The notes beneath the pieces were generated by a model that saw only the letters and a list, made by a program, of their open reading frames with translations, was not told the DNA's origin and did no database searches. Shown here piece after piece: positions 1 to 1,261 of a stretch of 64,000 nucleotides of DNA (position 1 is the first letter of the stretch; each line of letters begins with the position of its first letter). The position numbers and the translations under genes are program-made. The DNA is from Escherichia coli. GTDB taxonomy: Bacteria; Pseudomonadota; Gammaproteobacteria; Enterobacterales; Enterobacteriaceae. The stretch lies in the NCBI RefSeq assembly GCF_024700885.2, contig NZ_CP117016.1. The stretch is one strand, 5' to 3'.

Positions 1-153
1 TTGTCCTGGCAGCAGCTGAAAAACGCCATCAGCAATAAAGAAGACGGCCAGATCGTCAGTTAATGCGGAAGTTGCCAGTAAAGCATCTAAACCTTCCCGA
101 CCAGCAGCTGTACCATGAGGTGCAGTAGAAAAAACAAACGCAATTCGTTTCAT
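1..153 (-). CDS. tusC: Sulfurtransferase complex subunit TusC, N-terminal part (gene runs off the 5' window edge)
   Basis: Reverse complement of 1-153 translates [51 protein letters not shown], which I recognise as TusC. Its ATG (151-153, minus) overlaps the tusD stop by 1 nt. Not in the ORF track because the frame is truncated by the window edge. Confidence 0.85.
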
Positions 154-539
154 CAGAACTGTACCACCCTGTCACAGGTCAGCGAGGCTTCCGCCAGCGC
201 GCCAAGTCCGCTTAAGGTAAATCCCGACTGAAGATTTGACGAAGCCAGCCCCAGCCTTCCTGCTTCAGTTTCATCGACGATACCGCGGCGTAACGCTGCC
301 GCTACGCAGATATTCAGCGCCACACCATGTTGCGCATTCAACTGTTGCCAGCCGCGCACAAGGTCAAATTCGTCACTTGCCGGTGAGGTCAATTGGTTAG
401 CGTTATAGACCCCTTCCCGATAGAAAAAGACGCTGCTTAACTCATGGCCTTCTACTATCAGCGCCTGCGCAAACTGAAAAGCACTACTCGCCTGTTGCGT
501 ACCGTATGCTGGCCCGGTCACCACGATGGCAAAACGCAT
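153..539 (-). CDS. tusD: Sulfurtransferase TusD (DsrE-like), 128 aa
   Basis: ORF track 153..539; translation [16 protein letters not shown]... matches remembered TusD. Start overlaps the yheO stop by 1 nt. Confidence 0.93.
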
Positions 540-1261
540 TACTTATCTTGTCCCTGGAAATCACCGCTTTTGAACTGGCGGATGTAGAGATAGACAGTGT
601 GTTTGGAGATGTTCAGGCGGTCAGCAACCTGGTTGATCGCATCTTTAATATCGAAGATCCCTTTCTCGTAGAGATTTAGCACGATCTGACGATTTTTGGC
701 GTTATTAGAAACATTGCGATCGGCATTCACTTCTTCGATGGTGAACTCCAGCGTTTGGGTAACCAGATCTTCAACAGAAGAGGCAAAGTTGACGCTTGAA
801 CCGACATCCGGAGTTTCTGGCGGCACAAAGGTGCTCATAATCTGCGAGAAGGGAACATCAAGATTCATATTGATGCACAGCAGACCAATTACACGCTGTT
901 CGCGGTTACGAATCGCGATAGTCAGGGACTTCATTAATACGCCGCTTTTGGCGCGAGTAAAGTAGCATTTAGAAACGCTGCTATCCGCTCCCGTCATATC
1001 GTGCAGCATACGTAGCGCCAGGTCGGTAATTGGCGAACCAATCTTCCGGCCTGTATGTTCACCGTTAGCAATGCGAATGGCTGAACATTTTAGATCCTGC
1101 AAAGAGTGCAAAACGATTTCACAGTGGGAGCCAATAAGCATCGCTAACCCGTCCACCACCGCTTCGTAGGATTTCAGAATATCAAAATCGGTCTGGTCGA
1201 AAGGACGTTGATCCAGTAAATCCAACTCACTGGTTTCGTTGGTTAAAAGCGACCTGGACAT
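539..1261 (-). CDS. yheO: YheO, putative DNA-binding transcriptional regulator, 240 aa
   Basis: ORF track 539..1273 begins at a GTG; the internal ATG ([14 protein letters not shown]...) gives the 240-aa product I recall. C-terminal HTH-like segment ([12 protein letters not shown]). Confidence 0.85.

Follow-up and report, generated by a model that had tools for sequence, protein, structure and literature searches.

The window, a 64-kb stretch of the Escherichia coli chromosome, begins inside a cluster of genes read from the minus strand. The first of these in the direction of transcription is yheO (539..1261), which encodes a 240-aa putative transcription factor with PAS_6 and HTH_22 domains (PGAP, Pfam). 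It is followed by tusD (153..539), encoding a 128-aa DsrE-family sulfurtransferase subunit in which Cys78 is present (open reading frame, PGAP, Pfam, PDB 2d1p_A), and by the 5' part of tusC (1..153, codons 1-51), a gene that extends past the window start and was recognised by PGAP, a Pfam DsrE match from residue 2 and PDB 2d1p_B. Upstream of yheO lies fkpA (1428-2240, minus strand; PGAP), and PGAP places tusB, rpsL, rpsG and fusA just outside the window, beyond its start. Gene coordinates are those of the PGAP annotation of NZ_CP083512.1, which could be mapped base for base because positions 2486608-2550607 of that sequence are collinear with the whole window, without indels and with 5 mismatches. 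The first 3 kb of the window, used as a query, were matched in 5,425 of 5,426 complete E. coli genomes; a single place covered at least 80% of the query in 5,424 genomes, and all best places were at least 95% identical.

The identities given to yheO, tusD and tusC in the first-pass annotation were borne out by PGAP, by Pfam domains (PAS_6 and HTH_22 in YheO, DsrE in TusD and TusC) and by PDB 2D1P. YheO has the two domains of its family, an N-terminal YheO-like PAS domain (PF08348, PAS_6; E=9.5e-37) and a C-terminal HTH_22 (PF13309; E=1.4e-19). It binds DNA in vivo by ChIP-exo (PMC6237786) and published work ties it to ackA and acetate adaptation; a structure search found no solved YheO structure. 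TusD and TusC have the attributes of TusBCD/DsrEFH proteins, namely the DsrE fold, matches to 2D1P and the active-site Cys at TusD residue 78, and they are chains A and B of 2D1P, i.e. subunits of one complex. The DsrH gene follows tusC in related distant loci, as tusB does just past the window.

The three genes are co-directional neighbours on one transcript, as judged from strand, a consensus scan and the published operon: yheO-tusDCB is given as one operon in PMC3946193, PMC4421995 and PMC12783184 (RegulonDB-style lists). The consensus scan found no minus-strand terminator-like sites within or between yheO, tusD and tusC. Nor did it find any promoter-like site in 1-1500, on which ground a separate tusDCB promoter inside yheO was rejected; this is weak evidence, as the published yheO promoter escaped the scan too. 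Transcription runs from yheO through tusD and tusC to tusB and begins at a promoter between fkpA and yheO. The layout is the ordinary architecture of an already known E. coli operon.

Stop/start overlaps in the window and across genomes

Chained overlaps had been reported at 150-541, a span that correctly brackets tusD and both of its junctions. At the yheO/tusD junction (537..541, minus strand) the claimed 1-nt overlap is present as TAATG at 541-537, in which the stop TAA (541-539) and the tusD ATG (539-537) have A539 in common; the minus strand from 547 to 533 reads ...GAT AAG TAA TGC GTT... and the YheO translation ends in QGQDK and the stop. The tusD/tusC junction (TGATGA, 150..155, minus strand) differs in detail from the earlier description. 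An overlap exists there, but it is one of 1 nt (TGATG) and not the 4-nt ATGA that had been proposed. The sequence is ...CAG TTC TGA TGA AAC..., so that tusD ends in tandem in-frame stops (TGA TGA, after VVQF), the first of which, TGA at 155-153, is the terminating one, and the ATG at 153-151 opens the tusC frame (MKRI). An ATGA is physically present at 153-150, yet the overlap is of 1 nt because its TGA (152-150) is the second, unused in-frame stop. From tusC to tusB there is a 7-nt spacer, and the tusB Shine-Dalgarno (SD) sequence, GAGG, overlaps the tusC stop.

All the other overlaps listed in the first-pass annotation proved correct on the mapped PGAP coordinates. Overlaps of 1 nt (-1) were found for kefG/kefB, yheS/yheT and yhfX/yhfW, of 4 nt (-4) for nirB/nirD, frlC/frlD, yhfW/php (yhfV) and ompR/envZ, and of 8 nt (-8) for rpe/gph and gph/trpS. 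Six further pairs had gone unlisted: yheT/yheU (-7), yhfG/fic (-11), hofM/N (-1), hofN/O (-17), hofO/P (-11) and hofP/Q (-89). Overlap thus occurs in 17 of the 48 co-directional adjacent pairs in the window, and 13 of the 48 (27%) lie within -8 to +6 nt. Genome-wide the figure given for E. coli is 707 of 2,987 unidirectional pairs, or 24%, the commonest class being -4, then -1, then -8 (PMC10666635). The frequency in the window is far above that of random placement, yet normal for E. coli operons.

The persistence of the junctions was followed with a YheO scan of one genome per species, which gave 80 Enterobacteriaceae loci in which the four genes were placed by tblastn and in-frame start/stop walking. 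The yheO-tusD distance was -1 in 77 of 79 loci, the remaining two having 0 nt, that of tusD-tusC was -1 in 73 of 73, and that of tusC-tusB was +6 to +8 in 68 of 68, with the tusC stop embedded in TGAGG, the SD for tusB. The overlap was kept despite switches between TAA and TGA stops and changes in the C-terminal tail (YheO of 240, 241 or 242 aa), and the tusD stop alternates between TGA and TAA among the 73 loci. In these loci YheO is 95-100% identical across the 80 species, TusD 72-96%, TusC 61-95% and TusB 53-92%. Conservation of spacing within one family is nevertheless weak evidence of selection for overlap, because the tusC-tusB spacer is equally conserved.

More distant YheO homologues were obtained by a search of 50%-identity cluster representatives with contig look-up. 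Loci from Vibrio, Rosenbergiella and the L085 lineage keep the order fkpA-yheO-tusD-tusC-tusB-rpsL-rpsG-fusA. In the Vibrio cluster representative (YheO 67% identical) the yheO/tusD and tusD/tusC junctions are both -4 (GTGA and TTGA, respectively) and tusC/tusB is +9; in Rosenbergiella nectarea (65%) they are -1, -1 and +8; in the L085 lineage (53%) they are -1, +9 and +9. Of the three junctions, yheO/tusD has thus kept its overlap most persistently, though in varying form. YheO-like proteins below ~50% identity are found in other gene contexts (pta, peptidase C69 and others), and these unrelated contexts make the deeper homologues uninformative on the yheO/tusD junction. One such YheO-like gene, from Endozoicomonadaceae (46% identity), lies directly upstream of pta.

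The leader of yheO

The ribosome-binding region of yheO (1262..1287, minus strand) contains a hairpin, GCUCCU-GAAA-AGGAGU (1287-1272), followed by G, a run of eight U (1270-1263), C and the AUG. The minus strand from 1287 to 1259 thus reads GCUCCU-GAAA-AGGAGU-G-UUUUUUUU-C-AUG, and it was flagged as terminator-like by the consensus scan. The 3' arm of the hairpin is formed by the yheO SD, AGGAG. In a fold of the 86-nt leader the pair probability of this SD hairpin is 0.98, and the predicted structure of -19.2 kcal/mol also covers the start codon. RNAalifold gave a poor consensus for the leader (-2 kcal/mol), since in the MAFFT alignment the variant hairpins have their 3' arm displaced by one column, and the arms were tabulated directly instead. 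The SD hairpin was present in 76 of 80 species and absent from four. Its arms are GCTCCT/AGGAGT in 52 of the 80, GTTCCT with AGGAGT or AGGAGA in 8, GCTCTC/GAGGGT in 11, GCTCTA/TAGGGT in 4 and GCTTCA/AGGAGT in 1. These variants imply that at least two pairs have been maintained through changes on both sides.

A second hairpin, GAGCCUG...CAGGCUC, lies upstream in the leader (1284..1314, minus strand). Across species 92.6% of its cells are paired, changes are only wobble-compatible and loop length ranges between 15 and 22 nt. The GCUC in its 3' arm is common to the SD hairpin, so the two would be mutually exclusive. The start of the yheO coding region is also unusual in that codons 2-10 are near-invariant at synonymous sites, with a codon entropy of 0.31 where 1.10 would be expected (P<0.0002); rare codons are among the invariant ones (TCC in 77 of 77, AGG in 61 of 61, TCG in 80 of 80 and TTA in 79 of 80), and a weaker synonymous constraint reaches to about codon 40. 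A mini-ORF in the leader, AUG AGC CUG CCC UGA, was considered as a leader peptide and rejected: its start is ATG in 56 of 70 loci and TCG, CTG or TTG in the rest. No Rfam match at gathering score was found in the whole 64 kb; matches below threshold were terminator-like only and lay at the fkpA terminator.

A constitutive sigma-70 promoter with the sequence TGGAAA-16-ATTAAT (1336..1363, minus strand) has been assigned to yheO-tusDCB in a genomic SELEX table (PMC3946193); it fell below the threshold of the consensus scan. Between the -35 and -10 elements of this promoter lies a further small hairpin (1358-1344) whose inner pair covaries (UA 20, CG 18, GC 4). A covarying hairpin in that position suggests that transcription may begin further upstream, e.g. 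from TATAAT at 1375-1370.

Taken as sequence features, those of the leader suggest control of yheO initiation at the level of RNA. Because of the chained overlaps, control at the yheO start could propagate to TusD and TusC. It is a speculative extension, and a rather unlikely one, that synthesis of the whole tRNA 2-thiolation relay is controlled mainly by ribosome entry at the yheO start and that this entry is regulated through RNA, as an undescribed attenuator, a translational switch or the target of an sRNA or protein. If functional, the conserved leader could show how cells set their capacity for tRNA thiolation.

Translation of tusD and tusC

At the two overlapping starts the signals for independent initiation are weak. 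For tusD the duplex with the anti-SD is weak and poorly spaced (-4.8 kcal/mol, spacing 10), whereas for tusC, which has the SD-like AGGGUGG, it is moderate (-8.0 kcal/mol, spacing 8); tusB has GAGG near its start. The cost of opening each start was predicted for the region -18 to +13 from the folding of 160-nt segments. That of tusC, 15.5 kcal/mol, ranks at the 89th percentile of the genes in the window, whose median is 9.4, and that of tusD is 10.2 kcal/mol, at the median. Over the window as a whole, genes whose start is overlapped have on average stronger SD sequences than the rest (-7.7 vs -5.4 kcal/mol) and higher predicted start structure (11.8 vs 8.2 kcal/mol). By codon entropy in 68-80 species, the 10 codons flanking each junction on both sides are no more constrained at synonymous sites than expected (P = 0.10-0.25), and a conserved RNA element or RBS at the junctions was rejected on this test. 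What is conserved is then the stop/start overlap itself and not an embedded RBS or RNA structure.

The explanation favoured here, with moderate confidence and on the strength of junction geometry, fixed start codons, a common transcript, weak independent initiation signals and evolutionary persistence, is translational coupling of yheO, tusD and tusC by termination-reinitiation. A ribosome terminating at the yheO or tusD stop would already be on the next start and could re-initiate without leaving the mRNA, and its passage would also open the structured start region of tusC. TusD, TusC and TusB, the subunits of a heterohexamer, would thereby be made in matched amounts, and ribosome loading at yheO would be an input to the whole yheO-tusDCB chain. 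Huber et al. tested overlapping pairs from E. coli and Haloferax and found tight coupling in all of them, with a steep loss when the stop lay ~20 nt away, and subunits of heteromeric complexes were 4.5-fold enriched at short junctions (PMC6728339, PMC10666635). The tusD/tusC junction fits this stoichiometry rationale, because both proteins are subunits of a heteromeric complex (2D1P). The argument does not cover yheO/tusD, because YheO is not known to bind TusBCD and is reportedly dispensable for thiolation. The literature searched yielded no treatment of translational coupling in yheO-tusDCB, and the names YheO, TusB, TusC and TusD are absent from the accessible part of the Mori et al. 2021 supplements.

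Published genetics of yheO largely supply the polar-mutation analysis suggested at the outset and bear on how strict such coupling could be. An IS insertion in yheO phenocopies tus loss (gentamicin collateral sensitivity), whereas a scar-free yheO deletion does not, which the authors explained by polarity on tusDCB (PMC12783184). Among EZ-Tn5 insertions under mecillinam those in yheO were 69-fold enriched, against 175- to 361-fold for tusD, tusC and tusB (PMC5549755). Himar1 insertions in yheO of Salmonella were neutral under conditions that made tusBCD insertions costly (PMC9176671), and deletion of yheO is reported to be without effect on 2-thiolation, as cited there from Ikeuchi et al. (PMC9176671). 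The neutral Himar1 insertions imply that tusD can be adequately translated without completed yheO, at least when the transposon supplies transcription. The published insertion data are mixed: they show operon membership and polarity, and they suggest that translation of tusD does not strictly need completed translation of yheO. The dependence of tusD on yheO is probably partial rather than strict.

The same Salmonella insertions, neutral in yheO and costly in tus, could be taken to mean that the overlaps are a by-product of compaction and of codons that share bases, with free 30S subunits starting tusD and tusC de novo at weak internal RBSs and upstream translation mattering little. This has some claim to be considered, though it is the less probable account. 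The AGGGUGG of tusC (-8.0 kcal/mol) would be usable by free subunits, the junctions are without flanking synonymous constraint, lineages differ in junction type (-1, -4, 0 or +9), and roughly one E. coli junction in four has a -1 or -4 overlap, pairs that form no complex among them. Against de novo initiation, the tusD SD is weak and badly spaced, and strong structure is predicted at the tusC start. In addition, the yheO/tusD overlap was found in every sampled syntenic lineage despite changes in stop codon and tail length, and the overlapping pairs tested experimentally elsewhere were all coupled.

Coupling could also be brought about by unfolding, the upstream ribosome melting structure that hides the next start so that a new 30S subunit binds, in which case the exact overlap would be incidental. 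The opening cost of tusC (15.5 kcal/mol against the median of 9.4), the higher value for overlap-start genes as a group (11.8 vs 8.2 kcal/mol) and the tusC SD, usable by a free 30S once exposed, are all consistent with this. It appears unlikely nonetheless: the structure at the tusD start is only at the median (10.2 kcal/mol), all the folding values are predictions on 160-nt segments, and the collapse of coupling in the experiments of Huber et al. when the stop was ~20 nt away fits reinitiation better than long-range unfolding.

Revised start codons had been named at the outset as what could remove the overlaps. In the tusD frame there is an in-frame stop (TAA) two codons upstream of the ATG and in the tusC frame one (TGA) seven codons upstream, with no ATG, GTG or TTG between stop and start in either case, and TusD is without any other methionine. 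Pfam DsrE aligns from residue 1 of TusD (1-128, profile positions 1-116) and from residue 2 of TusC; PDB 2d1p_A matches TusD (E=8e-78) and opens at the annotated Met after a 12-residue tag, and 2d1p_B matches TusC (E=4e-76) over exactly residues 1-119 of the full protein. Alignments of 73-79 species agree on these start positions. It is true that GTG is present at tusD codons 6 and 7 and that automatic pipelines at times pick the longest ORF, but with upstream stops, Pfam N-termini, 2D1P chains and aligned starts all against it, the notion that the overlaps are annotation artefacts, the real tusD or tusC start lying elsewhere, is scarcely credible and start-codon revision was ruled out.

The layout of the operon has a practical consequence. 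Any interference with yheO can change TusBCD levels, and through them wobble-uridine thiolation and the translation of Lys, Glu and Gln codons. From CRISPRi knock-downs a recent preprint proposes the new name ldhR for yheO, and the word 'polar' is absent from its main text, so that non-polar alleles would be a sensible control. The same warning covers IS and transposon insertions, CRISPRi in general, C-terminal tags that move the yheO stop off the tusD ATG, and deletions of the 3' end of yheO.

Comparison with known systems

The classical case of translational coupling is that of trpE-trpD and trpB-trpA in the E. coli trp operon, where the genes meet in a UGAUG overlap and coupling was demonstrated genetically with upstream nonsense mutations. 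What the present operon shares with it is the 1-nt UGAUG geometry, joining enzymes that are produced in matched amounts off a single mRNA. The difference is that coupling has been genetically shown for trp, whereas for yheO-tusDCB we infer it.

Another parallel is offered by the TeRe pairs of Huber et al. (2019, 2023; PMC6728339, PMC10666635). In common with these the genes of yheO-tusDCB are co-directional, lie on one transcript and have the downstream RBS inside the upstream coding region. Both junctions have the stop/start overlap of the class (TAATG at 541-537, TGATG at 155-151), TAATG/TGATG being the second commonest class in E. coli, and the TusD/TusC pair encodes heteromeric subunits. 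The yheO/tusD junction, in contrast, joins a DNA-binding regulator to an enzyme subunit and not two subunits to each other. Coupling was measured in the TeRe pairs, whereas that of yheO-tusDCB is proposed from geometry, and the insertion data suggest that the yheO/tusD link is not strict.

The dsrEFH genes of Allochromatium vinosum (PDB 2HY5/2HYB) encode a homologous sulfur-relay heterohexamer, in which DsrE and DsrF are the counterparts of TusD and TusC. The gene order (E/D, F/C, H/B) is the same and the cistrons are adjacent, but dsrEFH is part of a cluster for dissimilatory sulfur oxidation and is not preceded by a regulator of the yheO type. A further comparison is with the published yheO-tusDCB operon itself (PMC3946193, PMC4421995, PMC12783184), which agrees with the window in locus, gene order and promoter assignment; these papers differ from the present account in having no discussion of the overlaps, the tandem tusD stop or the conserved structure of the yheO leader. 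The overlaps of yheO-tusDCB belong to a well-studied class and lie in a published operon, with nothing that departs from the class, and in this sense they are already known.

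The leader and start of yheO

The 5' leader of yheO (1262-1314, minus strand) was found to carry a hairpin that encloses the Shine-Dalgarno sequence together with a competing hairpin upstream. The Shine-Dalgarno forms the 3' arm of GCUCCU-GAAA-AGGAGU, which is followed by G-U8-C-AUG and is thus terminator-like in shape, and the segment GCUC is contested between this structure and the upstream hairpin GAGCCUG..CAGGCUC. The Shine-Dalgarno hairpin is present in 76 of the 80 Enterobacteriaceae species compared, with the compensatory variants GCUCUC/GAGGGU and GCUCUA/UAGGGU among them. 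No Rfam family matched the leader, nor did any reach gathering score over the whole window (1-64000).

Synonymous sites in yheO codons 2-10 (1232-1258, minus strand) are under extreme constraint across the 80 species, with a codon entropy of 0.31 against an expected 1.10 (P<0.0002), and this stretch includes rare codons (AGG, TCG and TTA) that do not vary; weaker constraint reaches approximately codon 40 (~1142). Candidate explanations are an RNA structure, a site for a regulator or sRNA, or a requirement of the initiation region.

A further small hairpin, AGCGG-AACCU-CCGCU (1344-1358, minus strand), sits within the published yheO promoter, between its -35 and -10 elements. Covariation is seen at the inner pair of the hairpin (UA in 20, CG in 18 and GC in 4 of 66), though pairing overall is only 72%. 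A perfect TATAAT at 1375-1370 on the same strand is a candidate alternative promoter, use of which would bring this hairpin into the transcript.

Gene junctions

The tusD gene ends in tandem in-frame stops, TGA TGA (150-155, minus strand), the second of which arises because codon 2 of tusC begins with A. The tandem stop was found in all 73 loci examined, codon 2 of tusC being Lys, Asn or Thr. Just beyond the window start, at the tusC/tusB junction (2786-2794 of L001, a locus reaching past that boundary), the two genes are separated by a 7 nt spacer, where TGAGG serves as the tusB Shine-Dalgarno and contains the tusC stop. In 68/68 species this spacing stays between +6 and +8, a conservation equal to that of the overlaps.

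The overlaps listed in the first-pass annotation can be extended by yheT/yheU (-7), yhfG/fic (-11), hofM/N (-1), hofN/O (-17) and hofO/P (-11), in genes at 8023-9045, 9039-9257, 15683-16442 and 44129-47415, and by an unusually long 89 nt overlap of hofP and hofQ (45279-45367). Elsewhere, PGAP annotates tsgA (17390-18578, plus strand) as frameshifted in the matching strain NZ_CP083512.1, its 1,189 nt not being a multiple of 3; the window sequence holds an intact ORF of 389 aa at 17390-18559 (plus strand).

YheO conservation and a distant relative

YheO (539-1261) is 95-100% identical across the Enterobacteriaceae genera of the 80 loci compared, whereas the co-operonic TusD, TusC and TusB show 72-96%, 61-95% and 53-92% identity in the same loci; YheO is therefore far more constrained than the downstream enzymes. 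In the Endozoicomonadaceae bacterium StTr2 a YheO-like gene of 46% identity lies directly 5' of pta (2501-5634 of loci L088/L089), with a Na+/sulfate- or citrate-type symporter gene as its upstream neighbour. Published hints, namely a ChIP-exo peak at ackA, acetate ALE mutations and ldhA repression, suggest that YheO may act on the acetate/pyruvate node, and the pta neighbourhood in StTr2 agrees with action there.
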